From the NCBI GenBank assembly GCA_003990765.1, contig RBNJ01000290.1, forward strand, positions 1 to 33,993: 33,993 bases of DNA, in the 5' to 3' direction. Position 1 is the first letter of the stretch. Each line of letters starts with the position of its first letter. Below are positions 2,050 through 26,310 of this stretch, piece after piece. Made by a program: the position numbers and the translations under genes. The notes under the pieces were generated by a model. The model searched no databases and was not told the DNA's origin. It was given only the letters and a program-made list of their open reading frames with translations. This stretch comes from Jimgerdemannia flammicorona. Taxonomy: Eukaryota.

Positions 2050-2400
2050 AGTATTATATAGTTTTGAGCATATATTACTAAGAGTTAGTTTTAAGAACAT
2101 TTTTGCAGATTACAACTCTCACTTTTTATAATAGCTCTGTCTTATCATACTTGCTCTACCTTTGGTAGGGTCCAGTTAGGTTGCTCAGATATACTGTTAT
2201 GTCCAGGTACTCTGATCCCAGTATTTGCTTATATAGTGGCTCTGCCTGATTGCACTTACTCTGTAATTTGTCAAGTATAGTCAGATTTTTCAGACATATT
2301 ATCATATCTGAGTACTCAGATCCTGACATCTTTGCATAGAGCATAGGTGCCCATTCTGACAGTAGCTACACCTTGTTGTACTTATTCTGGCTTTTATATA
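2050..2400 (-). pseudogene. Degenerate tetratricopeptide-repeat (kinesin-light-chain/NLR-type TPR) gene fragment
   Basis: Minus-strand translation YKSQNKYNKV*...SGSEYSDMIICLKNLTILDKLQSKCNQAEPLYKQILGSEYLDITVYLSNLTGPYQR*SKYDKTELL*KVRVVICKNVL matches the TPR consensus LG.EHPDTA.SLNNLA.LY..QGKY..AEPLY.RAL.I.EK.LG about 2.5 times. It has in-frame stops and no CpG. Confidence 0.75.
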
Positions 2401-2656
2401 TAGTTTTCTGATAAATTGCCATTTAACAATAATTATGAATACTGTTTTATACAGCCTTAACATATAATTCTGGGGTTCTAATATTCTATATTGAATATTC
2501 CATTTAGTAGAAAGGTCATCAGACTAATAGTATATCATGTAGAAATCATAAGTTTAGCTAGATAGCTTATAATATATATAAGTGCAATAGTACTGGGACT
2601 ATAGATATTAAGAATCCTATAATTATCAAGTTATAGAAAGTGATCATCATCCATCA

Positions 2657-2683
2657 TTTTTTTTTTTTTTTTTTTTTTTTTTT
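2657..2683 (-). repeat. Poly(T)27 tract (poly(A) on minus strand)
   Basis: Direct reading of the sequence. Confidence 0.95.
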
Positions 2684-4589
2684 CTTCTTTATATTAATTA
2701 TGCATATCATATTCTGTCAATGATACAAAAATATGAATGACCAAGCCATGAATTACACAATGTGAGGGTTCTATAAGAAAAGAAATTGATGAGGTAGTTT
2801 GTAGTCTAAAATTGTTAGGTTTAGAGTAAATGAAATTCACTATGGAGTCTGAAAAGTGAAATTTCAATTTTATTATACTTATTCTAAGGTACATATCTTT
2901 CTACTAAAAATAATCTATTCTTTACCAATTTTGAGATATGTACATGTGCCTTTTATATACCTTAGAATGAATAAGCCATGAAGTGTATACTATTTTTAGC
3001 AAGTCATTGGTTGAGTAATTACCATCTGATATATATATATTATATCCAACCTACTCTGATAGATATCTTACTATATCAAAATGTCTCACTATACCACAAT
3101 GAGAACAGTACTGCATCAGACCTAAATAGCCATATAAGAAAGACTACTCACTTTTTAATATACTATCATATCAAGATAATTTCCCATACCAAAGTGATAC
3201 CATCAAAGAATGATAGTATACCTACTAATAAAGAGACTATTGTGGGCCATTTACTACTATTGGAAAATGATATAACTGAAATATCTATATTGGATAGTAG
3301 TGTATCATAATATCTTTGGAATATTCTGAAGCAGTATGATGGACTTATTCATGAGGTGTTATTTTCTTATTGATCATCTATATGGATTTGGTGAATTTGA
3401 TATCTCCTATATTATGTGGAACTTTGGCAATAGATCTGTCCTCCTGATATGCTAGGCCTTAGTGGTTTCATTTATCTTATTAAGACATCATCATGAACTT
3501 AAAGAGTCTGATTATCAATATATATACCATACTGAACCTTGGTTTCACTCTCTCTTCCAGATAGCATACTATGCTAGATTTCTTCTTTTGAGATATTATA
3601 TCATCTTTGTCTTAAAATATAGATTACTAGATAAGCTTTATAGGTTTCAATTTATATGATGTGCTAAACTTGAGTAATTTACTATTTTTAGATAGTAGTA
3701 ACATATTATTTATATATTTTTTATTGTTGTAGTCAGTTTTGGTAATAGTTTCTGATAGATAGGATCAGCTTCATGGTACTGTTAAAATGACTTCTTCAGT
3801 GGCCTTGATATAAACTATTCATTCCTCTGATATTTCTGATGTTGTTTTCCTATTTAAGTCATTCAGTATGGTAGGTCTCTTCAGTTTTATGAGGAAAGTT
3901 TATATAATGATAGAATATAAGAAGAGAGATCTCAGTAAATAGATAGAAAGTTCAGAGAAAATTTTTAGTTCAAAGTCATTTGATCTATATAATACTTATC
4001 AATATATGAGATTAATTAATTAATGAATTAATTGTTGCAGATGATACTTTATGAAAATATATAGTAAATGGTCACAATTTATTACTGAGTAATACTTTTC
4101 TACTGGCCAGTAATTTGTAGTTGGATAATGACTTACTTCTGTAAACTGCTGGGTTATAATTAATCTCATTGGTACTGGGTTGATAAATAATTGCAGGGGT
4201 AATGATGATTATCCACTAAGGGATAATTAAGGGAGATACTTTGCTATTATATAATAACTTACTATTGGATGAATATTTGTAGGTAGTATGAAAACTTAGT
4301 ATTGGAGATAAAATATTATATCTGAGCATCAACTGACCTTGAGATAATTGACTTTTATTTTCATTAAAGATGTGATTATGTGATGACATTTATGACATTT
4401 TGCTCATATTGTAAAAGATCAACACTAAGTGTACTTCATCCAACCATTTTTAAGACAGTTGCTTATAATATAATATCTATGAAATTTAGGCATATATTAT
4501 TATTTTTACTTATTATTATCATTTATTTTATTATTAAAATGAAATCAGATATATTTGTAGAGTGTCTGCTGTCCTATCCTCCCTAGTGC

Positions 4590-5145
4590 TTTTCATCTCT
4601 CTATCTATAATCCCCTCCTCCTTATCTACAACTCTCTTCTCATCCACAACACCCTTCCTATCTATAACTTTCTCTTTATCTGCAACTCTCTCCCCATCTA
4701 CAACTCTCTCCCTATCTGCACCCTCCTCTCTATCTGCAACCTCTTTTCATCTACAACTCTCTTCCCCATCTGCAACTCTCTTCCTATCTATAACCTCCTT
4801 CCTTCTCATTAGCAACCCTCTCTCCATCTATACCCTCCTCTCCATCTGTAATCTCTCTCTATCTATAACTCTTTTCTCTATCCACAACCTCTCTCTCTAT
4901 CTGCAACTCCCTTCTCATCTATACTCTCCTCCCCATCTGCAATCTCTCTCCATCCACGACTCTCTTCTCTATCTACAACTTCCTCCCCATCTATAACTCC
5001 TACTTACAACTCTCTATCTTTAACTCCTCTCTACTAGTAACCCTCTTCCTATCTCCAACCCTCTTTCTATTTATAACCTTCTCTCTATCTGCAACTCATA
5101 ACCCATCTTATCTGCAACCCCTCTCTCTATATTCACAATCTCTTC
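4590..5145. repeat. CT-rich minisatellite, ~17-19-bp unit
   Basis: Recurrent units such as ctctctccccatctacaa, ctctcttccccatctgcaa and ctctcttcctatctataa. The unit ends tctgcaa/tccacaa/tctacaa/tctataa are consistent with a decayed tccgcga. Confidence 0.9.
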
Positions 5146-5432: not shown

Positions 5433-7361
5433 TAATATAGTAGTTACATAACTGTATAAGTATATTGGATTTCTATATCTTAGAAAGTTGATCTTCTTTG
5501 ACTTTATAGAGTTCTCAGAATATAGAGATGGGAGAGTTCAAAATATATCTGCCTGCAGGCTTACTAGTTCTCTTGCTTCTTCTTTGCTTTGAACTATTTT
5601 GATCTGAGGTTTATTCACTCTAGATATTGGGGATATTTTATATAAGTTTGCTAGCTATAAGGTGGCTAAGTTATGACTATATTTCCTATGAGTTACTTTC
5701 CACAAGTATTAATTCTTAATATCTGTTAAATCTTTGATAATTGTCAAGATTTAACATCTATGAAATCTTGACATTTGTGAAAACATTAACATTCATCAAA
5801 ACTTTAACATTTGTGAAATGGCTGCTATTTGTAAGGCTATATATTTGGGGGTACTGCAATATCAAATGTCTATTCCCCTGATTCATGTTCCTAATTCGGA
5901 TCAACCGTCACAATATATATACGCGTGTTGGTGGTGGCAAGTAAAACAGCCACATCATTATATGTCATTTCATTTGCCTGCTGGCCTCACATTATTGCAT
6001 TCCGGCATGAATATTGGGTTCCAATCATATTTCAACAATCCAGGATACCGTTGACGTGTCGGGTTTTACGCGCCGGCAAATTGCGCGCAATAGCATGAAC
6101 ATCGGACGCTGATGGCATTGATTGCGGACCAAGGCCTGCCTCCATCTAACGACTCAGCCCGTCAGAATACGCGCAGCCGCAGCCCGCTTGTACACTTGTC
6201 ATCACGTGATATTCGGTTTAACCTTTTTTACTTCTTTCACTCCTTCCATCACTCTACACCCACATTCCGTTACACCGCCAAGATGTATATCTTCGCCGAG
6301 ATCTGAGGTCTCCTCCCCCTTCCCCGAGGTCCCTCTGGCGCCGAGATCAATTCTCCCTCCCTATCATCATCACAGGTCACTTAACCAGCTCTGATCACCT
6401 CAGACCCTCACATGAACATCCTCAAAGACAACAATTTAGTATTCACTTAAGCTCTCGAAATCTCCCTTTATTTTATTTTATTTTTTGTATAAAATTGGAA
6501 AATAGCATTGGCAGTGTTCATCCGTGCATTACCCGAGTCGAGTCTCGGATACATAACCAAACTGAAACTCTCGTATGTCGAAACGGCGTGAAGCGTTATG
6601 GGCAGCTACGTGTTGGAATCAAGAGAGCAATTTTTGCGTGTTCGCTCACCTGGTTCATTCTAAAAATTTAAGTTGACAAGGCGGCATGCACCCCACCGTT
6701 TCCCTCTGATAAATTGGGGGATCCACAATCAAATCCTGTGATGTAGGTGGGGGGGGGGGGCGGCCTTTTTTTTACGTTTTCCATGAGGGCAAATTGCTGT
6801 ATTATATCCGTGTAGGCAAATTGATAGACACTTTCCAATTTGGTACTTTTCCATATGGAAAATCGCACAATTCACTCACATCGGCATTTAGGATATCTTA
6901 GCTTTAGACTATACCAAATTTATTCATCCAACAGAGAATTCAACTAAATAAATGCTATAAATGCCTATGCTTTGTAGCGTAACATACGTTAATACCAAAC
7001 ATACCAAGCACTCATATATAATGCGACTGCTAACATTTCATACCCATTTATGAAACCGTTAGAAGAAAAATGGGCATTTCGCTAAGAAAATTTTGCATCG
7101 GTTCGAGAGAGATGTCACTAATAAAAGAAACTACCTGTTGCTTTGATAATGTATAGAATTTTCAAACGGACGACGTATTTGTAGCGACCGATAATTCGGA
7201 ATGTTGATCCTTTGTTAAAAGATGAGAAAGGTTAGTAAATTGTTTCGAAAGATTGAATAAATTGTGCTCTGATGACAAGTGCTGTGTTGACAAGTGGGAA
7301 CCTTATGAAATATCATATATCATATCCACTAATGCTTGTCACTTTCAATTCCCCTACTAAT

Positions 7362-8627
7362 CATGCCAAGTTTGCCAGCGTATATGATTGAAATTTTGTC
7401 GACATGGCTTTTACAAACGCCTCGTCCATTTCCTCCTTGCTCTGGATTCCGCATCGAATTCCAATGAACTCCAAACATTGCCTCCATCCGCTATGTCCAC
7501 GAATCCTTCACGTAAGTTGGGCGCCGTATTGACAGAATTTCAACGATAGAAGACTGCTAGCATGCTGGGCGAAATGTATGAGAAACCTGTTAGAGACATC
7601 CGTAACATTTTGAAGTTGAAGATGGCATAAGTGAGGGCAAGAGTCGATGAGAAAGCAAAGCGACTGGTCAGAAATGGCTGCGTATATACGTCGATTGCGT
7701 GTCCCACGAGCAAATCAATGACAATGTCCTCAAATTCGGATAATCGGCGAGGGCACGCACAACGGGGTTCTGAAAACATTTAAGGCTATTGTTAATATAG
7801 AAATAGTCGAAATTGGGATGTCAGATTCGCAGGCCTTGATCTAGGGGATCAGCCGCCATATTGAGGTTTGAAACACACAACGAGCGCAATCTCGGAAGTG
7901 CGAAAACGAATAGCAGGAGATAATTTGCTCCTCCTAAATTCAAACGCCTGAAGCGAGTTGGGCAGGTTTTGTTGTAAGGAATCGCAGTAGGGATATATCA
8001 AGTCACTATCACGAAATGGAGTATCGCTGTCATAGATATAATCCTCGATGGCAAATAATTCGAGGTCTTGCGACAAGACAGGAAAGATGATCTGCAAAAC
8101 GCCATCAAATAGTAGCTGGTCATCGGTATAGTCTACGAGATAACTGAGGTCGATTTTCCGAAGCTGAGAGGATTGAAGGAGCCTCAGGATGCAAATGATT
8201 GCTGTGCTGGTATGGCCAATGTTGTCCTCGCGGTCGTACCAAGCGTACAGCGTGAAGTTCCTGATGTGGCTGCCTCGGTTGATGCACATTCGGCGACCAA
8301 AGAGTCTGCAAGCCTTGGCCAAATTTCGTCATTCGATTCTATGAAATCCTCGTACGTGTATTCTCCGCAACCAATGTCGAGGGCCCTGCAGAGCCGCAGG
8401 AGAGCGGCAGCGCGCCAGTCATGCGAGACTAGTGAGCAATTGAAGAGGGCGCTGCGATGGAAATAATGATCAACGTTGGAGTGGACATGATTGTTTCGCA
8501 AGAAAGGACATGACTCTAACGAAAGACCGTTTAAGCCACCAATCAACAAATCCATCGTCAATATAACAACGTCCCTATCAGCGTTATTGCCTCCGTTATG
8601 CTCTCTATCCTTCTTTAGCGTACTCAC
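7362..8627 (-). pseudogene. F-box / leucine-rich-repeat (RNI-like) protein pseudogene with several frameshifts
   Basis: An F-box C-terminal half RSALFNCSLVSHDWRAAALLRLCRAL (~8380-8460) is followed by LRR-like segments in changing frames: ILRLLQSSQLRKIDLS, RALADYPNLRTLSLIC, and ISDQSLCFLIDSCPHLCHLQLQNVTDVSNRFLIHFAQHASSLLSLKF (~7535-7675). The GTG 'start' at 8627 reads GTGAGT and is probably a splice donor. Both ends are approximate. Confidence 0.7.

Positions 8628-9300: not shown

Positions 9301-9366
<66 letters not shown>
9301..9366 (+). repeat. Poly(A)66 tract
   Basis: Direct reading of the sequence. Confidence 0.95.
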
Positions 9367-9368
<2 letters not shown>

Positions 9369-10189
9369 AAAAGATGGAAGAAACCTGCGGTGTGGTCGAC
9401 ATTAATAACTTTTTTTAAAAAATTTTGCTTTAGTGACTCGAATTATTAGAGTACTAAAGTTGACAAGGATGATCTGAATATTGAATGAGACCATCCACCA
9501 TCTGGTTTTGCACGTTTTTACAAAACAACTGGGGAGCCAGGTCCACATTGGTCAGGACGCTGCTATGAGCGAGATCGAAGATAGGGTTTGGCGGTACACG
9601 GTGACTTATTCCGCCACGGAACAATACACAACCTACTTGCTGTATTTTATGCGGGTCAGCTCAGCAAAGATACTTTTACTGTGTGGAAATTTTCACTGCC
9701 GTACGCAACTACCTCACCGTTGACCTCTTTAGGACACGGTTTACGTTGATCGAGAAAAATAAAATTTAAATATAGTGCACCACGTCTATAGTAATTTTTT
9801 TCATTAAAAACTCTATTTCTAGACAATTAATATAATAATAAAATAATAATAATAATAATCTAATAAAAGACTTTCTTAAATTTACTTCTATAGAGAGTTT
9901 TTATTATTATTCATTTTTTTTTAATTTGTGGCTTAAAATTAATCACATGACTATGTTTATTCCAATTTTAACTCGTTACATTCTGGCTATAACTCTATAG
10001 AGAGTTTTTTTTAATTTTATTATATTTATAATAAGTAATAATTATTTGAAAAATATATATGTTTTTTTTAATTATTTTTTCAACTTCTATTTCTTGAAAA
10101 TGACATTATAATTTTTTTTTAAAAAAATATAAAATAATCTAAATTATTTCTAACTTTAATTCTATAAAGAGTTTTTTTTTGAAAAAATA

Positions 10190-11330
10190 TCTATTGATAG
10201 ATATAAATTCTCATCAATAAAAGCTTATCATTGCTACTAAATTCTCATTGACAGAGGCTCACTGGCAAAGAACCATTGATAGGCTCATGATAGAGAAAGG
10301 TCAATAGAGGTTTAATGGTAGAGAACTATCATTGCTGCTGAATTCTCATTGATAGAGGCTTGATGGCAGAAAACAGTTGATAGAGGCTCAATAGTAGAGA
10401 ATAGTTGATAGAGGCTTATTACTGCTGAATTCTCATTAATGGAGGCTCAATGGCAGAGAACAGTTGATGGAGGCTCATCACTGCTGAATTCTCATTAATA
10501 GAGGCTTGATGGCAGAGAATGGTCAATGGAGGCTCAATGGCAGAGAACTATCATCACTGCTAAATTCTCATTAATAGAGGCTCAGTAGTAGAGAACTATC
10601 ATTATTACTGAATTCTCATTAATGGAGGCTCAATGGCAGATGACAGAGAACTATCAATTGAGGCTTGATGGCAGAGAATAGTCAATAGAGACTTGATGGT
10701 AGAGAACAGTCAATAGAGACTTGATGGCAGAGAACCATCATTACTGCTAAATTCTCATTGATGGAGACTCAATGGCAGAGAATTATCATTACTGCTGAAT
10801 TCTCATTAATGGAGGCTCAGTGGTAGAGAACTATCATCACTGCTGAATTCTTATTGATAGAGGCTCAAAAGTTCTTATTGATAGAGACTCAATAGTTGAT
10901 AAAGGCTCAATGGTAGAGAACTATTGTCACTACTGAATTCTCATTAATGAAGGCTCAAAAGTTCTCATTGATAGAGGCTCAATAGTCAATAGAGACTCAT
11001 TGGTAGAGAACTATTATTGCTGTTAAATTCTCATTGATAAATAGTTGATGGAGGCTTAATGGCAGAGAACAGCTGATGGTAGAAAACTGTCATTACTGCT
11101 GAATTCTCATTGATAGAAGGAGAATGGTTGATAAAGACTTAATAACAGAGAACAGTTGATAGAGGCTCGATGATAGAGAATAGTTGATAGAGGCTTGATG
11201 GCAGAGAACTATCAATAGAGACTCATTGCTGCTGAATTCTCATTAATAAAGACTCAATGACAGAGAACTATAAATAGAGACTTACTGATAGAGAACTGTC
11301 AATAGAGATAGATAGAGAACCATTGATGGT
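10190..11330 (+). repeat. Modular tandem array (28-bp and 20-bp modules), transposon subterminal region downstream of the transposase
   Basis: Repeated tcaatggaggc(tc/tt)(a/g)atggcagagaac(a/t)g and tcat(c/t)(a/g)ctgctgaattctca. Confidence 0.92.
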
Positions 11331-11450
11331 ATATAAAATATATATATTTATTTGACCAATATATATATGTATATAATATGAAAATAAAATAAAAATAATA
11401 AAATAAAATACAGTTATTCTATAACTAAATATCCCTTTTATAACTAAATA

Positions 11451-13850
11451 CTAAACATCAATAGATTGAACCATACTTTGAGAAATATGGCAATGTAAAC
11501 GATATTTTTTTACTACATATTCTGCAGCAGCTAAAGTAAGTTTCTGCCAATATATAATTATAGATTTTTGACAATAATATGCATATTTTCAGATAGTAAG
11601 AAGGTCAATAGATATTAAAGCTTTAGGAATATTTTTCTTCAGTCCTATCCATGTATAGTCACAATGAATTCTAATTATTATAATTAACAAAATATTAATA
11701 TTAATATTCTAATTATCATATTTATTTGCTAATTTAATAGATCTATATATATACATATCTGCAGTATAGTTTTACAGTACTCTAAAAATGTTCAATGTAA
11801 TTTAATTCACAATAAAATTTTGGATAAAAAATACACTTATGACCTAAGGCTTCAATGGTCTCTTGAATAAGTAGTTTTTATACTATAAAGTTCTCTTGAA
11901 GAGACATTATTTTTTCAGCACAACAATTGTTAGTCTTGTATACTTCTTGACATCTTGCTAATATTTTTTCTTTTGGCTATAGACCTCTTTCTTTAAGTAC
12001 TACTTTTAATCCTTTTGCTTGACCTTAAAGATTTTCATCAGAATAATCAGATGGAAAAACCATTTCTTGTAAAATACCATTATATGTTATAGTATACATC
12101 AATGGTTGCTTTCCACCTAGATTAAGATTCATCTTATGAGCCAGTAGAGCATCTGAGACATATATTGAGTATCCTTGACTATTGTCAAATGCAAATACTC
12201 CAATACAGTTTGGGTGAACTGCTTTGAAAATTGAAATTGCCATTGTTATAATCTAAATATTAAATAAATAAAAATAAAAATTTTGTTTTGAGTATACATT
12301 TATATTCTGAACAATATTCAGCAGTAAAAGGCCTCCCATCGACCATTCTCTGCCATTGAGTCTCTATCAGTGGTTCTCTACCATCAAGCCTGCATCAATT
12401 GTTCTCTACTATTGATTCTTTATTAATGAGAATTTACAATGAAAATTCAGCAGTGATAAACCTCTATTAACTATTCTCTATCATCAAGCCTTTATTATAT
12501 ATATATATATAATTATAAAATATATTTATCTATTGAAGTATATCTTCATCAGTCCAATATTCTTCATGATTTTTGCCAACTTCAAATAAAATACATGCCT
12601 CTCTTGGAAATATTGCTATCATTTTTGAATATTTTTCTTCAAGTATAGCTAGATGTCCAATAGTATCTAGAAGAAATTCACTCACCATTAAACCAGCATC
12701 TCTACTTTTTTTTCTCAAAGGTTGTTCTTCTTTTGGTCCCCATCTATATCTAAGATCATCATTAGTATTGAAAACAGCTTCATCATGAGTAATTAAGATA
12801 TGTTGTTCTCCAAATAGAATGTTGTATGGTAATGGTTGAAGATCTTGATCATATTTAACCATTAATGATTCCCATCCAGCTAGTTGTTGTAAGAATTATT
12901 GATAATGAGCTTTAACATCTTTATGTTTATAATCATCAACATAAATTCCTTTTCTGCATTTGCTGTAAACATATTCCATTTTGATCATCCATCTTCTTAT
13001 AGTTTCTTTATGAATAGTTGTCACTTTTATTGATAGATTAAGTGCTGGAAAAATTTCTATCTCCAAATGTTTTTTAAGTGTTCTAGGAGTTGCTGTAAAT
13101 TTGTTATCTTGTAAATAAGTTATAACTGCATGTTGAACATTTATCTCTTCAAGAAGACTTTTAACTTTTGAATGTTTTTCTTATTTGATAGTAGAAACAA
13201 GTCATTCATCAATCCAATCCTGTCTCCATTTCTACAAAAGTTTTGCATAATAATATCCATAGTTGACACTTTCTGTAATAAGATTACTGATCTCAAAATT
13301 ACTATGAGATATGGTGAAGTCATAAAATCATAGACAGAGAGAGATCTTTTGTTGTTTTTATAAAGTTTTGTAGTACCCCAATATGAATATCATCATTGTC
13401 ATCATCATCACTATCTTCTTCATAGTTATCAATTTCATCTTTATCTTCAATATTATTATCTTCATCTTCATCATCCTCATCCTCATCCTCAGTATCATCC
13501 TCACTATTGTCAACTTTCTTCTCTTTCTCATCCTTATTATTATCTTTTTCTTCTTTATCATTCTTGTTTCTATATATAACAAATTAATTATATTATTAGA
13601 TTTTATATATATAACTTTTTTTTTTTTTAATTTCTATATAGATTAATAATTTACTTTACATACTTTAGTATATTTTGGTTGCTACTACATTCAGATGGTA
13701 GTGGTAATAGTGATGGGGAAGTACAGAGAGTTGAAAGACTTGAAGATTGCAAAGAAATTGCCTTATACATATCCTTAATAATTCTTCATCTTTTCTAATA
13801 TCATATCTCCCTCAGCTGAAGTACTTGTTTTGTCAATCATCTCATTTATA
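11451..13850 (-). pseudogene. Intron-containing DDE transposase pseudogene (IS630/Tc1-like, long D-E spacer); further small 5' exons may extend to ~14840
   Basis: Motifs in order: an acidic tract (13380-13570), KHSKVKSLL, ETIRRWM, KGIYVDD, ITHDEAVFNTND (D1), QPLRKK, GKNHEEYWT, FAFDNS (D2 at 12184-12186), GGKQP, KGLKVVLKERGL, GHKCIFYPKFYCELNYIE (E at 11791-11793), CDYT, AEYVVKKY, then a stop at 11451-11453. Introns inferred at ~11672-11758, 12253-12529 and ~13570-13665. Many TAA/TAG/TGA stops sit at expected Q/R/W codons. Confidence 0.88.
12318..12493 (-). repeat. Same modular array, reverse orientation, inside transposase intron 12253-12529
   Basis: gaccattctctgccattgagtctctatca...gagaattt...aattcagcagtgat is the reverse complement of the modules. 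Confidence 0.85.
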
Positions 13851-13898
13851 CTGTAATTATAATATAATATAATATAAAGGTTAACATAAAAGGCTTAT

Positions 13899-14622
13899 AG
13901 AATTCTCATTAATAGAGGCTCAATAGTAGAGAACCATCAATAGAGGCTTGATGGTAGAGAGTGGTTGATGGAGGCTTGATGGCAGAGAATAGTTAATAGA
14001 GGCTTAATGGCAGAGAATGGTCAATGGAGACTTGATAGCAGAGAACTGTCAATAGAGGCTCAATGGCAGAGAACTGTTATTGCTGCTGAATTCTTATTGA
14101 TAGAGACTCAATGATAGAGAACCATTATAACTACTAAATTCTCATTAATGGCAGAGAACTGTCAATGGAGGATTGATGGCAGAGAACCATCATTGCTGCT
14201 GAATTCTCATTGATAGAGGCTCGATGAGAGAGAATGGTCAATGGAGACTCAATGGCAGAGAACTATCATTACTGCTGAATTCTCATTAATGGAGGTTTGA
14301 TGGCAGAGAATAGTCAATGGAGGCTTGATGGCAGAGAACAGTCAATAGAGGCTTGATGACAGAGAATGATCAATGGAGGCTCAATGGCAGAGAGCAGAGA
14401 ACAGTTAATAGAGGCTTAATAATAGAAAACTATCATCACTGCTGAATTCTTATTGATGGAGGCTCAATGGTAGAGAACCATCAATAGAGGCTCAATGGCA
14501 GAGAACAGTTGATGGAGGCTCAATGGTAGAGAACTGCCATCACTGCTAAATTCTCATTGATGGAGACTTGATGGTAGAGAATAGTTGATGGAGGCTTAAT
14601 GCCAGAGAACCATTGATGGAGG
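13899..14622 (+). repeat. Same modular array, forward orientation, filling a putative intron (13851-14630)
   Basis: The 28-bp period is visible (unit starts at 14314 and 14342), interspersed with the 20-bp GAATTC module. On the minus strand it is bounded by GTAATG (14630) and TTACAG (13851). Confidence 0.92.
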
Positions 14623-14843
14623 ATCATTACTTGTTATAGCAAAATCCTTCTTGCTAATAGTATTGATACAGCAGCATTATAGGCATAGTTCCATCTAGCT
14701 GATATATATATATATATGTAAGATTATATTTTTACATATCTTGTTTGAAGTATAGATAGGTAGGTTTGTAGGTGTATAATTAGTATCAATAAATTTTGAC
14801 ACAAATCAATATTTCTAAGTCCAACAGAACAGATAAGTATCAG

Positions 14844-15612
14844 TGAGCCTCTATCAATAGTTCTCTCCATCAATCATTCTCTACTATTGAGCCTCCATCA
14901 ATGAGAATTCAGCAGCAATGAGCCTCCATTGACCATTCTCTGCCATCAAGCCTCCATCAACTGTTCTCTACTATCGAGCCTCCATCAACTATTCTCTGCC
15001 ATCAAGCCTCCATCAACCATTCTCTGCTATTGATCCTCCATTGACCATTCTGCCATTGAGCCTCCATCAATGAGAATTTAGTGATGATGGTTCTCTGCCA
15101 TTGAGCCTCCATTGACCATTCTCTGCCATTGAGCCTCTATTGACCATTCTCTGCCATCAAGCCTCCATCAATGAGAATTCAGCAGTGATGATGATTCTCT
15201 ACCATCAAGCCTCCATTGACCATTCTCTGTCATCAAGCCTCTATCTGAGAATTCAGCAGTGATGAGCCTCCATTGACCATTCTCTGCCATTGAGCCTCCA
15301 TTGACCATTCTCTGCCATCAAGCCTCTATCAATGAGAATTCAGCAGTAATGACAGTTCTTTGCCATTGAGCCTCTATCAATGCAATGAGAATTCAGCAGC
15401 AATGAGCCTCCATTGATGGTTCTTCGAGGCTGAATTCTCATTGATGGAGGCTCAATGGCAGGGAACTGTTGATGGAGGCTCGATGGCAGATAGAGGCTCA
15501 TCACTGCTGAATTCTCATTGATGGACATCAGCAAGCCTCCATCGACAGTTCTCTGCTAGCAGTCCTCCATCAATGAGAATTCAGCTTCCATCGGCAAGCC
15601 TCCATGAGGATT
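14844..15612 (-). repeat. Same modular array, mainly reverse orientation, with a short forward block at ~15428-15527
   Basis: gagcctccattgaccattctctgccatcaa and gagaattcagcagtgatga repeats. The orientation flips at ~15425 and flips back at ~15530. Confidence 0.92.
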
Positions 15613-16559
15613 CAACAACCAATATAATATATATAATATATAATAGAGTCTAAAAAATGATCTTTTTAGTTTTTTTAGTTGATATTTATCACTAATGTAT
15701 GACTGCATTTCATTTTTTAAAATCGACTGTGACGAGTATAGGCGTGGTGCACTATACAAATGAGGAATACCATTAGCAGCTCCACAGAATAACAACATTC
15801 CTAAAGTTAACCTCTCAAAAGTAATTTAAATCAAGGAAACGTATAATTATCCAAAGATAACAAAGTACGGATTACAAGCAATCCCACCAGCCTCCCCGCT
15901 CCACCATAGTTTGCAACGAGTGATTCCCCCAAAGGTAATTTCAGACTGTTCAGACTTGGATATTGTTGATCATCTACCGTCATCTCTTTTCTCGCCTTGC
16001 CGCCAACACGTTGAGCGTTGCCTTCATGTCCGTGATTGGCGTTTTCATGTCGTCTAAAAAGAATTAAGAATAACAAATTTGAGACCATGTCCATCTCTAA
16101 TGCTCGTAATTATAAAGCTAGTACTGATACATGCTCCATTATTTCAGACTTACTTTTTCCTCCTCCGAAATTGAGCACATGACGACGCTTTCGAGCTGAC
16201 GAAATTCTGTCATGTCATCTGGTCCAAGGAAGATAATCCTGTCTAGAGTGTAGGTCAACACTCTATTTGTAACGTGGCCATTGTGTGTCATTGGTGTCCG
16301 TACATTTCGAAATTCGAAAAGCTGCTCGTACATATGTTCGTCACCTGAAATGAAATAAAGAAATTTAGAAGTGTTCCCACTATTGACGCTTGCAAAAAAC
16401 GTTGCGTACCTGGGCGGGGGTCAGGAAGTGTTTGCTTGAATGTGGCATAATTATGTAAAATGCATTTGATTGCTGCGTCCGGTGACCATGCTCTCAGGGC
16501 AGTCGCACGAATCCCTTCGTTATTCTCCCTGACGCAGTTGATATTGTACCATGTTACAA

Positions 16560-16712
16560 AGCTTACGGCCATTCCGTGTCCTCGTCTCCATAATAATGCC
16601 AGAACGGGCATGTCGTGGTCGCGATGTTGCTTGTGGCCTCGGAGCGGACGCAACGACAAAGAAAACGATGGAGACACACCGCTTCACCTTGCTGCGCAGT
16701 AAGGGCGACAAA
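16560..16712 (+). pseudogene. Ankyrin-repeat gene fragment, frameshifted and truncated at a CpG-depleted block
   Basis: Across frames it reads CQNGHVVVAMLLV / LGADA / NDKENDGDTPLHLAAQ*G, matching the ankyrin consensus (G.TPLH.AA..G, LL..GAD.N). Confidence 0.75.
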
Positions 16713-19117: not shown

Positions 19118-20350
19118 GTCAGAGTAATAACTAATCATACTGCTCTCAAATAGTAATTTAACTATAAGAAACTATTAGAATTCTTGTCTACTAGATTCTT
19201 ATTTTACAGAATTACAAAATCACTATTATTTACAAATCAGAAAAAGCTCATAATAATATTAATGTACTTTTCTATCAGTCTCAATAAACCAGAAAAAGAA
19301 TGTATTAAGGAACTATACTCTAAAGAAAGCTTCTATAACTATTAAAGTACAAGAAGATCTCATCTGATAAGAATATTAGAAAGCTCACTAAAGATAAGTA
19401 AACATAGAAGAAAAGTTATAAATAATATACTAATACTGACTCTACCTCTGAATACAAGTCTGAGACATATTCAAGAAATGTAACATTTACTAGAAGTATT
19501 AAGAAAAGAAGAACTATCAAGTATTACTACAATCAATCACATCATTAGTCTATTTCTTTCAAAGATAGAAAGTAGATATTATTAGATCTTTGCCAGTTAT
19601 ACTAAGAAGAAATAAATATATTCAAATATTTATAGAATATCTAACTAAATGACCTAAAGCTTTTTCAATAGAAATTGCTGATGTCTTAACTATTATAGAC
19701 CTCCTCTATAGCCTCACACTCAGATATAAACTCTCAGAAGAACTTATTTCTAACTGAGATATAGAATTCATTAATAATATAATTATAAATTATACCTGAA
19801 TTTACAAGATTCACCTCAAATGAACAACATCATACTACTCTCAAACTAATAGTATGATAGAATAAATAAACCAGACCATTAAGAAAGAACTTTTCTCTAT
19901 CAATTCTACTAACTAAGACCTCTGCTTATCTGAAATTCTATGAGAAATTCAGAACACCCCTATTACCTCTATCAAATAAAAGTCATTTAAGATGATATTT
20001 ACTAAGAAGACTAGAACTGTTAATTATGAGAATCTTGGAGACCTCCTCAAAAAGCCAGAACAATTGTATAATTAAGCCTGAGCTCAGATAATCAAGACCC
20101 AGGAAAGACAAAAGAAGTACTATGACCAGAAGCAGAAGGATTAGAAGATTCAGATTATAGGTCAAGGAGAAGTATGATTGAAACAAACTTTGCTACCAAA
20201 ATAAAGCTTAAATAGAAAGAACCTTATCTTGTATACAATATCAGAGAAACTAGTATCTATTTGAGAAGTATAGATAGATGTACTCTGAAGACTCCAGTCT
20301 ATATCAATTATCTTAAGATATATCTGTCAGTTCCCTTGCCTCAGTTCTGA
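19118..20350 (+). mobile_element. Ty3/gypsy pol fragment: RNase H C-terminus and integrase (decayed)
   Basis: VITNHTALK, ILQNYKITIIYKSEKAHNN (cf. VITDH.ALKWL, YKPGK.H.NADALSR), then IEYLTK*PKAF, ELISN*DIEF and TTSYYSQTNSMIE*IN (rve core). Confidence 0.8.
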
Positions 20351-20569
20351 GAAATCAATAGAACCCACCTTTAACAGATTCAGATATACTAAAGAAACCA
20401 TATCTTAGTAGAATGCTTACTATAGATTTATTAACTATAGACTTATTATATAATCAGCCAACTACTGTAAAATCTTCCAATCTTAGAACAGATCTATATT
20501 TGCAATACTACTGGTCTATCTCAAAGAAATACTACTGATCTATTTCAAAGAAATATTACTACTACTGAC

Positions 20570-23500
20570 AGACTATCAATATAGACAGCAATGAGCATAC
20601 TGATGGGTATACTGGCCAGGGAGACAGCAGTGCCTTTGACTGACAGTAGGTCAGAAGGAGGTGAGGAGATTGTTTGGAGATGTCAGAGCCCCCAAGGGTT
20701 GGCCATGGTATTGGTGGCAGAGGGAGGGGTGGAGTGAGGCAACAAGGAAGTGGGAGGATGATCTTTGCTGATAAGGTTAGGATGGGGACAATGATATCAG
20801 GTCTGGATAGTTGGTTGAGACTGAGGAAAGTATTGACAGCTACAGCTGGGGGACAGAGAGGGGCCCTCATAAGAGGGACAGGCAGTAGAGGGGGGGGAGT
20901 AGGGCTGGGGGTGTAACTGCTGATAGAGCTGTAACTAGGGATCTGGAAAAAAATCCAGATGTGACAGTTGTTGGTAGATCAGAACAGGGGAAGAGCATGA
21001 GGCCTGAAGACCTGGCCAATGGCATGATGGGTATGGTGTTGACACTATTACTCAAAAAGTAGAGGTCAGAATTCGCTGTCACATTGTACTTCCAAGACTT
21101 GGTGGTAACTGCAAGGATGATTTTGGGGCTGGTGGTATAGGAGGTGAAGGGGGTGGCTTCAGTGAAGTTTTTGAAGAGAAAAGAAGAGGGTAGTGGTGGG
21201 TGAAGTAGTGGTTCCTATGGCCAGGTGTATGTGCTGGAACCCTTGTATAGTGTAGTTGACAGTATTGAATCTTCTGATAGTATCAAGGGAGAGAGCCAGG
21301 GAGCTGATTGTGGAGGTGGTCAAAGAGTATGGAGAGATTGTGGACATTGGGTTCAGAGTCTGAGAGAGTACTGAACTCAGGACTAGAGACATTGATGTCA
21401 GGGTGAGGCTGGCTGGGAGAGAGAATACAGAGAAGACAAGGAACTGGCCAGCAACTCTTAAATGGGGACTGGTTGAATGTAAGGTTGTCTGGGTGAAAGA
21501 GATACAAGAGGAGGAGGAGGACTTGCTGGAGGCTCTTGAAGATCTGGCAGGAGCAGTAGAGAGGAGGAGATTGGCTTGGAAGGAGTATGAAGCCAAAACA
21601 GTAGTGGAGATTGTAGATGAAAAGAGGGTCAGGATGGACCAGATGGCCTGAGAGAAGATGCAGGGGAGGCAAATCCAGAAGGAGCTGTTGGAGAAGTTGT
21701 AAGAGAGTATGGTAGATATTAGTGTAGGAGAAGATGGTACTGGATAAGAGAGTGACTGGGCTGGGGAGTACTGGACAGCTCAGAGTGTGGCCAATGGTAG
21801 ACTGAGTAAGGAGGGATGGAGAGGCACAATGGAGGATGCAGAAATGGATGAAGAAGTGCATCCTCAGTATAGTGTTCTGGGCAGAGTGAGGGGTGAGGAG
21901 GAGCTACTAGATATACTAGAGGAGGAGTGAGATGAGTCAGTGAGGAGGAGCACTTTGGTGGTCTCTGTGGTGGGGGTCGAAGGGATCACCCAAGGTGTTG
22001 TAGAGGCAGTGGATGAAGAGAAGTAGCTGTGGAAGGCTCTGGAGAGAGTGGTGGCAGAGGAGCTGAGGGGTGAGGATTTCTGGATTTTGAGTAATAGGTA
22101 TTAGGAAGAAATTCTCCATGGTGAGAAGGTGTCAAGGAAGATTAGGAATGAGATCCTGGCAGTACTCTTGGAGTCAGTGGAATATCAGATAGATGATCAG
22201 AGGTAGGAGGCCCTTTGAAGGGCTGCAGATGACTGGGCAGCATACTTGTAGGGGTCAAGGAAGGGGCTGGAGAAGTGGAGGGTGGTGTGTGAGAATTATC
22301 AGATAGCAATAAAGGTTGTGGATGGGACAGAGTATCAGGAAATATTAGAGGAAATTGATGCTCAGGCTGTAATAGAAGATGAGGTAGAGGCAGAGTGGCA
22401 TTTGGATCTGGTTAGTAACAGGATGAGCATAGAATACTAGATGGGGTTCTCCTTATCAAACATTATTCAATATGAACAATATAACTTATATTTTTTCTTT
22501 GAACATAAATAGATTGAGGGGTGCAGCATGGTGAAGGAATATCTTTGGCTGGTTGAAGGGGCTAAATGTAGATCTCTTCTTACTACAGGATATATAGTAT
22601 GAGACAGAAATGGATTTACAGAACTGGACTAGAGAATGGAGTGGAGCAGCTGTGTAGACAGGGTGGGTGGACATTCTGGTTTGAAAGGAGATGGGGGACA
22701 TTGGGAACATTGGACACTGGGAGAGTAGGTTGGTATAGAGAGTAGAGAAGAGGCCTGGGTGGAACCTTTTAACAGTAGGGTCATGTTGTTGCCTGGCTGA
22801 GAGGGAGGAATGTATAGATTGGATCAGAGACTTGAGAGAAGCTAGAGTTATGGATGAGGTAGGGATTGATTGTCTGGGGGGGAATTTTAATATAGTATAT
22901 GATAGTAGGGTGGACAGGACTGATGGAGAGAGAAGAATGGAGAGCAGAAGTAGCAGGCTTGAAGATTAAATAGAGATAGAGAGATTGAGCTCCTTGATTG
23001 ACTCAGAGTGATGGTTTTGGGTGGATCACTGAATTTATACTTACTGGTTAGCAGGGCTGGGCTCCAGAATTGACTGGGTACTGATGGCAGAGTACTGGGG
23101 AGTGGATGTCTAGAACATACTGGAGGTGGTTTGGTGCCTGTGGTCAGATCACTGGGGTCTGATAGGGAGTGGGAGATTTGGGGGAAGTGGAGATGGGCCT
23201 GGATATTAGCAACTAAATTCTTCTTTGTTGGAGGATGGTTCCTTATAGTCAGATTGAGAGGTGGAAGTTATTGAGAAGATTGGTAGGTGGTGGAAGCAGG
23301 GATTAGTGATTAGAGACTGCTGGCAGCAGTTGAAATCAAGTGCTCAGAGGTACTGGAGGGAGGCAGGGAAAGGAAGGAGTGCTCAGTGGTAGTAGTGAGT
23401 GCAATGGGCTTTATAGAGATTGGTGGCACTTCTGGGGAGGTGGGTGGGGTTGCTGGAGGATTAGGGGGGGGCTGATTGGCAAATTCTGCAGATACAAAAG

Positions 23501-25518
23501 GAAATAGATGAGCTAAAGAAAGTGTTATGAATAGAGGAAGAGGCTCAGCTAAAGGGTATGGTGGTAAGGTTGTGGTGGCAGAGGTTGGAAGAGGGGGAGA
23601 GGTCTACTAGATTTCTTTCATAGTTGCTCCAAGCTTAGAGAACCAGATAGTGGTGGGATGGTATTTTGGATGAGGATGGAGAGATGATGGCAGGAACTCC
23701 TGAGATTTTGGGATTGCTGAGGACTTACTAAAGGAATTTATGGAGTAATGATGAAGGGGGTGAGGATGTCCTGAACATTGAACAACAGCTGGAGGATTGG
23801 CATCCAGATCCAGCACTGGGTCTGGAGATATTGAGAGATCCAGTGTGGGGAGAGAATGTATGCAAGGTCTTGGCTTTGATAAGCAAGGGGACAGCTCCAG
23901 GAGAGGATGAGCTGCCCTGGAATTTTTGGAAGAAGAAGGCTGGGGTAGAGGTGGTATTGGAGAAGATGATGGTGATGAGTAGTGAGGTCCTTTGGTCTGG
24001 AACTTGGATTGGGGGCCAGTACCTTGGGCTGATCTCCTTGCTCTATTAGGATAAGAGAAGAAGAGAAGTTGGAAGAACTGATGACCAATCATGCTCCTTG
24101 ATATAGACTGTAAGCTAGTGACAAAGATCTTGGTGACTAGATTGCAGGGGATCACTCAGCAGATACTAGGAGTAGAGCAGAGGGGATTTGTTGGTGGTCA
24201 GTTGATCCAATATGGAACTGCCTGGGTCTATGGGGTGATTGAAGGGGCTTGGGCAGCTAGGATTGATGGCCAGTTAGTGTTTCTGGATCAGGAGAAAGTG
24301 TATGACAGGGTGAGGAGGGTCTGGCTGAAGGGAGTGTTGAAATATATAAGAGTTCCCCCAGAGGTCCAGAGGTCTTTAATCAGTCTTTTGGAGAACAGTC
24401 AAGTAGTATTGGTGGTGAATGAGCACAGGGGTGTGACTTTTCTGCTAGACCATGGAGTGCCACAAGAGGATCCTTTGTCACTCATCATATATGCCCTTTT
24501 TTTGGAGCCCCTATTGGACAGAATCCAGTATCGAATTGGGGGTTTAGACATTTTGGGGATTAACTAGAAGGTTGGGGCTTTTGTGGATGACAGAGTGGTT
24601 AGACTAGATTCATTAGAGAATGTAGAGAAATTAAGAAGGACTGTAGAATGATATGAGAGGGGCTCAGGTACTTGACTCAACTGGTACAAATGTGAGACTC
24701 TGGTGCTAGGCAGCAGAATAGTTGGTGGTAATGTGATTGGAAAAGTGGTGCCAGCAGGAGAACCAGTCTGATACTTGGGGATATACTTTTCAGTATATGG
24801 GTCCCTTCTGCCCTATATCTGGTAGGAACAGTAGCTACTAGCATGAGAGAATATTCTCTTGAGGTAGGATGGTTGGTATATATCCTTGATAGGAAGGATG
24901 ATGGTGCTGAATGTATATTGGCTGCCAAAGCTGTGGTATGTGGAGTATCATTTAGACTTCTTAGCATGGGTGGTTGGGCAACTTCTGAAGATAACAAGAT
25001 CATAAATTTGGGCCAGGCAGAGAAGTCAGATAGGCTGGGAGATTCTGACTCTACCTGTTGACAGAGACAAGCTGGGCTTAGTGAACTTTACCAAGTATCT
25101 CTATTGCCTGAGAGCATGATGGCTAAAGAGAGCAAGTGAGTTGAGGGGCTGAGAGTGGGTACCACTCATGCAGAGAGTGTGGGAAGTCTGGTATTCCTCT
25201 CATGGAGTGACTGGTGACTTGCTTGCAATAGTGGCTATAGACAGGAGTAGGAGGATGCATTATAAAGACTTTTGGTGGGGAGTGGTGGATGGTACAAGGA
25301 GAATTGGACTTCAGTGGCAGGGTGATGAGAAGGAGGCAGACTGGAGACCACAGATGTAGAGATGGGATAGACTACTGCTGAGAGGTATATTGGTGGAGGA
25401 TTTTCAGCTTGGCAATGGAATGGAATATATATGAGGGCTCAGGGGAGACTTGTGGCCTGAAGCATAGCAAAGGGTGGGGATTGGCAAGGAGTAGGACTGG
25501 AATGGTATTTGGCCTTGA
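20570..25518 (+). mobile_element. L1/Tx1-like non-LTR retrotransposon: ORF1 (~20570-22470) and ORF2 APE endonuclease-RT (from 22473), decayed, 3' end missing
   Basis: APE motifs FSLNINRL, DLFLLQD, LGGNFN (~22874), SRIDWV (~23063) and WSDH (~23140). RT motifs APGEDEL, N**PIMLLDIDCKLVTKIL, QRGFV, FLDQEKVYDRV, GVPQEDPLS and AFVDD (~24578). ORF1 has an RRM-like segment (VKEYGEIVDIG). No poly(A) tail. Confidence 0.92.
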
Positions 25519-26310
25519 GATATCATTGGACCACTACCAGTAACAATATCAGGAAACTACTATATTATAGTTATTGTAGACCTCTTTTCCAAATAGATAG
25601 AAGCAGGAGTATTACAAGAAGCCAATGCTCTCTCTATAGCCGACTTCCTGTACTGAGAAATCATCTGTTGCTATAAGACACCAAGGCAAATCACCATAGA
25701 CTGTGGCACAGAATTTATCAATGAATTCTATGAGATAATATATCAGAAATATAAGATTCAGCACATCAAGACCACTGCATACCACCCTCAAGAAAATGGA
25801 CAGACAGAAAGAACCAACAAGACCCTCAAGAACATCCTGGTGAAAATCTCAGACATATATGAGAATTGAGATAACTACCTCCTAACTGCCCTCTCTGTTC
25901 TATGAGACATGTAGTCACAGAGCACATACTTTACTCCAAGAGAACTGCTCTTTAGAGAAGAAGATTCTGATGGAACCTCAGCCACAAATCTAGACCTAAC
26001 TTAGAGACAGATCAATGCAGAAATCTGGAGATTACACCAAATCAGGAAGAAGGCCATCAATAAGTTACAAGTACTGATAAGGAAGAATGCAGAAAAGAAT
26101 CACAAGACCCTAGAACTCATCCAAATCAGAGAAAAGGTCCTACTGTATCAAAATATGATAGAAGCCTCATGGTTGCAAAAACTGGAGCCTAAATGGGAAG
26201 AACTCTTCTATATGTAAGATATTAAGAGAACTATCTTCTGGTTTAGAAAAATCTCAGGAACTATACTGTCTACTACAGTATACAGGAACAGACTCAAGAA
26301 GTACTATGAA
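25519..26310 (+). mobile_element. Ty3/gypsy integrase (rve plus C-terminal region) of the element ending in LTR copy A
   Basis: DIIGPLPVTISGNYYIIVIVDLFSK*IEA, QITIDCGTEF, TTAYHPQENGQTERTNKTLK, KLEPKWEELF, RNRLKKYYEP. Confidence 0.92.

Follow-up and report, generated by a model that had tools for sequence, protein, structure and literature searches.

Clade-specific tandem-repeat arrays in the non-coding parts of a decayed Sagan-like transposon of Jimgerdemannia flammicorona

The element and its transposase gene

A stretch of 33,993 nucleotides from contig RBNJ01000290.1 of Jimgerdemannia flammicorona (assembly GCA_003990765.1; this whole stretch is hereafter the window) carries a decayed DNA transposon in whose non-coding parts lie four blocks of tandem repeats. 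An earlier reading of the DNA letters without database searches (the sequence-only reading) had placed the element at 9771..15756; it does lie there, but the outermost two nucleotides on each side are a TA target-site duplication (TSD) and not part of the element, and the transposon itself spans 9773-15754 with the dinucleotide TA on both sides (Table 1). This copy, the window copy, is on contig C290 of genome G000; C-numbers denote contigs of that genome and L-numbers denote loci. Its 18-bp terminal inverted repeats (TIRs) agree between the two ends at 17/18 bases, and a genome-wide search for the TIR core gave 48 exact matches as against none for a control. In L114 two element ends adjoin across a single TA. 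A TATA duplication was rejected because the termini of L114 and of a related family of miniature inverted-repeat transposable elements (MITEs, see below) show TA. Between the repeat blocks and the TIRs lie unique, mutually dissimilar ends of approximately 400 bp on the side of block 4 and 125 bp on the side of block 1.

The element appears to be a dead copy of a Sagan-type IS630/Tc1/mariner transposon, an assignment drawn from the TA duplication, the short TIRs and the long insertion between the second D and the E of the catalytic triad. These features are the ones given for the Sagan group in the accessible part of its description (PMC3164196), and the assignment is by such features. Protein relatives of the element bear names from fungi. 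All three triad motifs (THDE, FDNS and ELNYIE) are found in the window copy; the second D and the E are separated by 130 residues in L115 and 132 in L112, and the window exon aligns over this span. Matches to known domains are modest: Pfam DDE_3 is hit by exon 3 of L022 at E 2e-4 (below the curated cut-off) and by the relative P0017 at E 1e-6 (above it), the E motif matches Sleeping Beauty (5cr4) weakly at E 0.087, and an Atlas search with the transposase returned unnamed eukaryotic clusters together with one cluster in which 12% of members carry DDE_3. The element differs from its presumed group in structure and size. Tc1/mariner transposons usually comprise a compact, intronless gene between TIRs (bioRxiv 10.1101/2021.09.26.461848, accessible part), and introns or internal arrays go unmentioned in the part of PMC3164196 that covers Sagan, whereas here there are four introns and clade-specific arrays, and the array-bearing subfamilies measure 6-9 kb against approximately 2.8 kb for intact relatives.

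The gene lies on the minus strand, and its exon-intron structure was fixed by the two intact metagenome relatives, L112 and L114/L115. These came from a metagenome search that returned eight loci; a first metagenome scan and a viral scan had found no relatives. L112 is complete at 2.76 kb from TIR to TIR, with a TIR of 33 bp and a single 79-nt intron, whereas the frame of L114 and L115 is open and contains two introns, one of 79 and one of 105 nt; all three loci are free of arrays. The intron at 12253-12529, whose removal had been proposed to join ILQ(Q)|IITMAISIF in frame, is borne out by the two intact relatives, in which a phase-0 intron of 79 nt occupies the same site. Its donor is GT in 4/7 aligned copies of the subfamily; in three, the window copy among them, GT has become AT. 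A second intron, proposed at 13851-14630, was placed correctly at its 13851 end but, judged by homology, begins at 14739 and lies in the 5' untranslated region (UTR); the donor at 14630 was discarded as it is not conserved in L013. L013, L021, L032, L104 and L114 share a GTATG donor as well as an acceptor that lies a few bases ahead of the start codon, and the donor was also read in L105. A regular-expression search located the N-terminus in 12/38 loci and the donor in five, and the tally for this intron uses six loci read by eye or by that search.

The window copy is dead: nine stops fall in 489 aligned core residues and a further four in exon 1, the frame shifts near 13310, and three of four intron donors have changed from GT to AT. 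A coding role for the segment at 14740..14845 or for the arrays was likewise rejected, the reading frame being broken by indels in the one and by unit lengths of 11, 17 and 20 in the other.

Table 1. Positions of features of the transposon in the window
Feature	Position	Strand	Remarks
TA target-site duplication, left	9771..9772	.	TA before 11/11 MITE termini read; L114 ends
TIR, 3' end of element	9773..9790	+	17/18 match to other end
AT-rich 3' subterminal region, 16% GC	9791..10191	.	CTATAGAGAG-type motifs at 9888, 9995 and 10162
Array block 4, 3' of stop codon	10192..11335	+	units antisense to gene; also in L043, L044, L045, L053, L056 and L058, mainly in equal orientation
Coding exon 4, decayed, to stop codon at 11451	11451..11670	-	exon has a homologue in intact L115
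Array-free intron, donor GT>AT	11671..11758	-	105-nt intron at identical site in L115
Coding exon 3, second D (FDNS) and E (ELNYIE) ~130 residues apart	11759..12252	-	relatives
Phase-0 intron, 277 nt, donor GT>AT	12253..12529	-	short in sister clades and intact relatives
Array block 3, within intron 12253..12529	12315..12500	-	units sense to gene
Coding exon 2: acidic tract, putative DNA-binding region, first D (THDE)	12530..13569	-	stops; frameshift near 13310
Array-free intron, 94 nt	13570..13663	-	found also in clades C, D and F
Coding exon 1 from ATG at 13845, four stops	13664..13845	-	basic N-terminus homologous to intact L115
Putative 5'-UTR intron, 889 nt, donor GT>AT	13851..14739	-	by homology
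Array block 2, within 5'-UTR intron	13899..14625	+	units antisense to gene
Segment of unique sequence flanked by the mutually inverted blocks 1 and 2; candidate core promoter and 5'-UTR exon	14740..14845	-	conserved among subfamily copies; precedes 5'-UTR donor
Array block 1, 5' subterminal	14846..15612	-	units sense to gene; inverted patch 15423-15519 common to C567
TIR, 5' end of element	15737..15754	-	paired with 9773..9790
TA target-site duplication, right	15755..15756	.	MITE termini read

Repeat units and their arrangement among clade-A copies

A profile scan with the 28-mer and 20-mer modules agrees with the four blocks originally delimited at 10190-11330, 12318-12493, 13899-14622 and 14844-15612: all hits fall within 10230-15591 and none in the remainder of the 34-kb window. 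The spans total approximately 2.8 kb of 5,986 bp, as had been estimated, and whole units account for 2,384 bp of the four main segments. The description of the arrays as two modules did not survive, since the 28-mer is itself an 11-mer followed by a 17-mer and there are hence three units, of 11, 17 and 20 nt (numbered 1, 2 and 3 below). All begin with TCG or its decay products; these first three bases are common to all units and the first seven to the first two. The original forms were probably TCGATGGAGGC, TCGATGGCAGAGAACNG and TCGTCGCTGCTGAATTCTCA. Parsing of 30 block segments gave 574 11-mers, 489 17-mers and 221 20-mers, and 1,147 unit junctions were counted (12, 418; 21, 309; 31, 181; 23, 106; 13, 92; 22, 29; 32, 11; 11, 1), so that five kinds of junction (12, 21, 31, 23 and 13) make up 1,106/1,147. 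The 11-mer alone is unspecific: when both strands of 28 kb of background were parsed, it turned up in isolation 97 times. A degenerate pattern of 27 nt that spans a junction was matched exactly at 101 places in the genome and its reversed control at none.

In the window copy the coding sequence is free of blocks throughout, in keeping with the claim that the arrays spare the recognisable transposase exons. Blocks 1 to 4 alternate in the order sense, antisense, sense, antisense relative to the gene, a feature that the sequence-only reading does not mention. This arrangement is shared by the other members of the same subfamily (clade A). Arrays are present in 7/7 clade-A contigs found through the transposase, and where orientation could be mapped block 1 is sense in 9/9 copies, block 2 antisense in 8/8, block 3 sense in 9/9 and block 4 antisense in 7/7, one of these with an internal inversion. 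Of the 101 junction-pattern matches, the 100 listed fall on 17 contigs, 15/17 of which have unique element sequence beside the array. Of the other two, C19531 retains only the kind of nested insertion that characterises block 1, and in C6936 retroelements have inserted to either side of the array. The sole array abutting an exon is that of L020, which adjoins exon 2. We take it to be a deletion product because exon 1 and the acidic tract are missing from the stretch examined, and exon disruption by arrays was otherwise not seen in other copies. The edges of the blocks show neither a common end sequence nor a uniform TSD.

Within this fixed framework, unit order and block length vary among clade-A copies. 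Block 3, 196 bp in the window, reaches 1,111 bp in C3262 and 1,341 bp in C2134. In C567, the closest copy, it measures at least 570 bp, so the short block of the window is probably a contraction. Unit order is partly orthologous, the window and C567 having three irregular markers in common with whole units added between them. The grammar of junctions goes with the element and not with the block: C2134 has 35 junctions of type 13 and two of type 23 over three blocks, as compared with seven and 17 in the window. A truncated-unit variant follows 7/38 20-mers in C2134, in blocks 1, 2 and 3, and 0/181 in 11 other contigs (Fisher p 3e-6; C2531, which has two, was excluded). Because both the variant and the grammar are common to the blocks of C2134, oppositely oriented blocks seem either to exchange sequence or to have a common lineage-specific source.

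A MITE-like insertion of 450 bp lies inside block 1 of L013 (5030-5480) and is present also in C3262, C2134, C15962 and L104, with a remnant in C19531. It marks a sub-lineage that continued to move.

Sister subfamilies, selection and decay

Approximately 45 of 144 transposase matches, picked by identity and extent of contig, were taken with their surroundings. A quick tree of 48 rows with SH-aLRT (Shimodaira-Hasegawa-like approximate likelihood-ratio test) support, from which rows of fewer than 200 residues (L020, L057 and L130) were dropped, united 42 rows as one radiation of this genome (support 98), sister to the array-free L115. Arrays are found in 39/42 of these rows within the stretches examined, the three rows that lack them being partly truncated or interrupted, and the type of unit tracks the transposase clade: sister arrays consist of 19-mers, of 18/22-mers, of 25-mers with 12-mers, of 17-mers with 187-bp units, of 10/23-mers or of 39/40-mers. 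L163, nearest to L135 and clade F by transversions, carries an array of 18-mers related to the window units. No arrays were seen in three rows from the genome outside the radiation or in three metagenome rows, L113 and L115 being without full flanks.

Sister arrays are found on both the 5' and the 3' side of the gene and, in 4/6 loci read, in the 5'-UTR intron. The QQ|II intron that houses block 3 is short in 17/17 sister-clade copies measured, so that its invasion is confined to clade A. Inverted pairs of arrays recur in clades B, C, D and E. A test of 4-mers over 12 array types found ATCG enriched in 5/12 and five other 4-mers in 6/12, with none above six.

Several further structures were noted among these relatives. 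In L032 (clade D, 398-1090) the 5'-UTR donor and an array form a cassette in tandem triplicate. The 5'-UTR intron array of L021 (clade C, 2620-3040) is a near-perfect hairpin of 19/14-mers (z -23.6), and L025 (clade C, 2143-3121 and 6569-7550) has inverted ends of 982 bp with 96% identity, unlike the short clade-A TIRs. L120 (on C9542) has two transposase matches facing each other across a 4.3-kb array, in the manner of a foldback-like dimer. In L092 (357-5950) a related end and a few A-type units are followed by arrays of 26-, 15- and 9-mers and apparent gene fragments, and this locus is possibly a cargo-carrying non-autonomous element or a nest. Multi-kb arrays of related 18-mers, with no transposase in the stretch examined, make up L060 and L061 (C442, 5350-8540 and 15976-19213), L165 and L062; those of C442 form an inverted pair approximately 7 kb apart and resemble satellite growth.

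The sequence-only reading had further suggested that the arrays spread while the gene was still under selection. Comparison of clade A with L115 gives non-synonymous and synonymous divergences (dN and dS) of 0.19 and 2.43, and with L022 of 0.28 and 0.79, so the branches separating clade A from its relatives were under purifying selection and the arrays were probably already present in active ancestors. To this extent the suggestion has indirect support; the timing of array growth has none, since dN/dS is near 1 on most branches to single copies and no selection signal is seen inside clade A (16 shared transversion columns, mostly non-synonymous), so that changes in array length cannot be dated to the active phase.

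Whether the arrays are needed for movement is addressed by an AT-rich MITE of 561 bp (L140-L147, for example C13013:3890-4450), which has two ends of the family's 3'-end type and an identical TIR. None of its eight full copies (90-100% identity; 40 of 126 candidates were scored) contains units. The subfamily that moved it is suggested by the similarity, 83-88%, of its ends to the clade-A AT-rich end. As an array-free MITE with the same ends has moved, the arrays are dispensable in cis, at least for this MITE. The putative DNA-binding regions of clades B, B2, C and D are moreover 85-90% identical although their subterminal arrays differ, the units bear no resemblance to the TIR, and the TIR core is common to subfamilies with different arrays.

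Exons and arrays have both decayed. Variation among units is mostly C to T and G to A, with 58% of CpG, 40% of CpA, 23% of CpC and 7% of CpT sites changed relative to the templates. Exon changes follow the same order (0.46, 0.35, 0.30 and 0.11; 732/910 differences), with the excess of C to T partly built in because the ancestor was inferred with a lean to C and G. In both exons and arrays (window 9773-15754 and clade-A copies) the spectrum CpG > CpA > CpC > CpT is thus like that of repeat-induced point mutation. The observed-to-expected ratio of CpG is 1.1 and 0.78 in the host DNA beside the element and 0.0-0.2 in exons and arrays.

Origin and possible roles of the arrays

The arrays are inherited with the element, occupy fixed non-coding sites, change in length by whole units and turn over from clade to clade. 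Of the options put forward earlier (protein-binding platforms, seeds of methylation or chromatin, and a minisatellite that hitch-hikes on the element) the last fits best, and we favour, tentatively and at a level just short of probable, a self-homogenising minisatellite that hitch-hikes on the transposon and is kept out of exons by selection. The arrays are an inherited, unstable minisatellite carried inside the element. According to this model slippage or unequal exchange at the shared starts of units (three to seven bases) would add, remove and reorder whole units; such a mechanism would account for the irregular order and variable length. Units are also shared across blocks, including those in opposite orientation, most likely through template switching during repair of the break left by excision, a route suggested by what is generally known of DNA transposons. 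As long as ancestors were active, selection for a working transposase would have confined the arrays to the two ends of the element, the 5'-UTR intron and a single coding intron, while long-term turnover replaced the unit sequence in each subfamily. The arrays would be tolerated passengers, with excision and insertion proceeding independently of them, and each inserted copy would then be silenced and eroded by C-to-T change, most strongly at CpG and CpA.

A number of observations sit uneasily with such neutrality. Neutral passengers should be deleted more often than retention in 39/42 rows allows, and the arrays make the element approximately twice as long and, in a genome where repeats are subject to mutation, burden it with inverted repeats rich in CpG. 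Their placement is biased towards the promoter side and the 5'-UTR intron (4/6 loci), the coding intron being short in all 17 sister copies. Constraint may also be the meaning of two further findings, namely that a related 18-mer with the same start as the 11-mer accompanies the transposase of the distant E/F clade, and that ATCG ranks third or higher among CpG contexts in 9/11 CpG-retaining array types.

A possible though less likely explanation is that the arrays are a cis-regulatory platform as in the VANDAL elements of Arabidopsis. Many copies of a short motif with CpG, placed around the promoter, in introns and at the 3' end, would be bound by a host factor or by a protein of the element, which here could only be the transposase; transcription would thereby continue or methylation be kept away, with units turning over between subfamilies in an arms race. 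The accessible part of PMC5735166 describes VANDAL21 repeats in introns, upstream and in terminal non-coding regions, a layout that the present one fits, and reports tandem motif repeats that vary between related families, with units gained, lost and diverging jointly. The likeness thus extends to dynamic, family-specific, non-coding tandem repeats whose units diverge together. The tracking of transposase clade by unit type, the presence of arrays in nearly the whole radiation and the position of blocks 1 and 2 on either side of the candidate promoter agree with a platform, and AtMu1 transposase alone is reported to activate cognate copies through TIR binding (accessible part of preprint 10.64898/2026.08.24.746577). 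However, VANDAL elements are Mutator-like and encode VANC, whereas the present element belongs to another superfamily in another kingdom and arranges its blocks in alternation with a three-unit grammar; its binding and demethylation are hypothetical. Exons, arrays and AT-rich ends fill the window element and leave no VANC-like second gene there (the larger sister elements were not screened). Near-identical putative DNA-binding regions go with different subterminal arrays, all copies of the genome that were examined are mutated with arrays hit as heavily as exons, and the array-free relatives carry intact genes. We rate a platform below a passenger minisatellite because there is no VANC-like gene and binding is hypothetical. 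The layout nonetheless recalls plant transposons that use repeats to escape silencing, the functional likeness being hypothetical, and a more specific version can be framed, rather unlikely in our judgement: a one-gene, VANDAL-like counter-defence in a fungus with strong repeat-directed C-to-T mutation, in which each subfamily's own arrays, around the promoter and in introns and homogenised across blocks, would be bound by transposase or a host factor for expression.

Strict alternation in all copies mapped invites the idea that the blocks act by folding back, with blocks 1 and 2 pairing around the promoter, 2 and 3 around exons 1-2, and 3 and 4 around the catalytic exons, and with double-stranded RNA or altered splicing limiting the element. 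In C3262 blocks 2 and 3 show 72-74% complementarity along approximately 1.1 kb; pieces of 300 nt pair at -374 kcal/mol, whereas shuffled sequences average -135; the hairpin in the clade C 5'-UTR intron and the inverted pairs of four sister clades are of the same kind. We consider this improbable, given that pairing is a trivial outcome of inverted copies, that inversions are also by-products of template switching and that L028 shows no inverted pairing in the stretch examined. Tetris and Galileo share variable inverted tandem repeats inside a DNA transposon that grow to kb-size arrays; their repeats are part of and derived from long TIRs, according to the accessible part of PMC4079207, whereas here the TIR is 18 bp and has no relation to the units, and two of the blocks lie in introns. 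The window element has no long modular TIRs of the foldback type, in which tandem repeats start at the termini.

A role of the units as additional transposase-binding sites for synapsis, on the model of CACTA/hAT subterminal repeats or Galileo internal TIR repeats, is more doubtful still. Subterminal transposase-binding repeats of CACTA and hAT elements are needed in cis and are kept in their non-autonomous derivatives, whereas here all eight full MITE copies are without units. Blocks 1 and 4 are indeed subterminal and mutually inverted, and Galileo internal repeats are cited as containing secondary binding sites (PMC4079207, accessible part). The dissimilarity of units and TIR, the TIR core shared despite different arrays and the movement of the array-free MITE all weaken this proposal, and the CTATAGAGAG-type motifs of the AT-rich end are better candidates for such sites. 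We give least credence to the idea that a small mobile repeat or satellite targets these elements and inserted separately to form each block. Direct repeats of 5-7 nt, AT-rich, can be found across block edges, and the related 18-mer occurs both on the distant clade and in multi-kb arrays with no transposase in the stretch examined (C442 and C2264). However, these edge repeats vary in size, have no shared terminus and belong to edges that are orthologous between copies, unique element sequence lies beside the array in 15/17 listed contigs, and the other two are cut by nested insertions; the model is largely refuted.

Tandem repeats inside DNA transposons are already known, to judge by the accessible parts of PMC4079207 and PMC9659126. 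The latter covers minisatellites that, like the present ones, were born in non-coding parts and spread by elements, for example the Tc1/mariner MITE miDNA4, but the part accessible lists no autonomous Tc1/mariner with multi-site arrays that turn over by subfamily. No description of clade-specific arrays in Sagan or Tc1/mariner elements was found in the literature covered, which includes the accessible part of PMC5751038 and excludes most subscription journals and Repbase. What distinguishes the present case is one radiation that doubled in size and kept arrays at homologous non-coding sites while their sequence was replaced clade by clade. If the arrays are neutral, they form a clean natural record of the birth of a minisatellite, its homogenisation across inverted blocks and its growth to kb size inside a DNA transposon. 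If they are functional, the reach of sequence-specific anti-silencing, known from Mutator-like and CACTA elements of plants, would widen to fungi and to an element with a single gene. The intact array-free relatives L112 and L115 make function testable.

A frame at 16451-16702, to the right of the transposon, ends in what we take to be an ankyrin-like motif, with no Pfam hit at E 0.01, and a poly(A) run of 66 nt lies 400 bp to the left of the transposon (9301-9366). A separate, decayed 18-bp CT-rich minisatellite occupies 4614-5095 in AT-rich, probably transposon-derived DNA. The region from 20000 to 26000 holds a decayed element resembling a long interspersed nuclear element, with strong GC skew and a reverse transcriptase fragment at 24085-24564 (Pfam RVT_1, E 3e-10).

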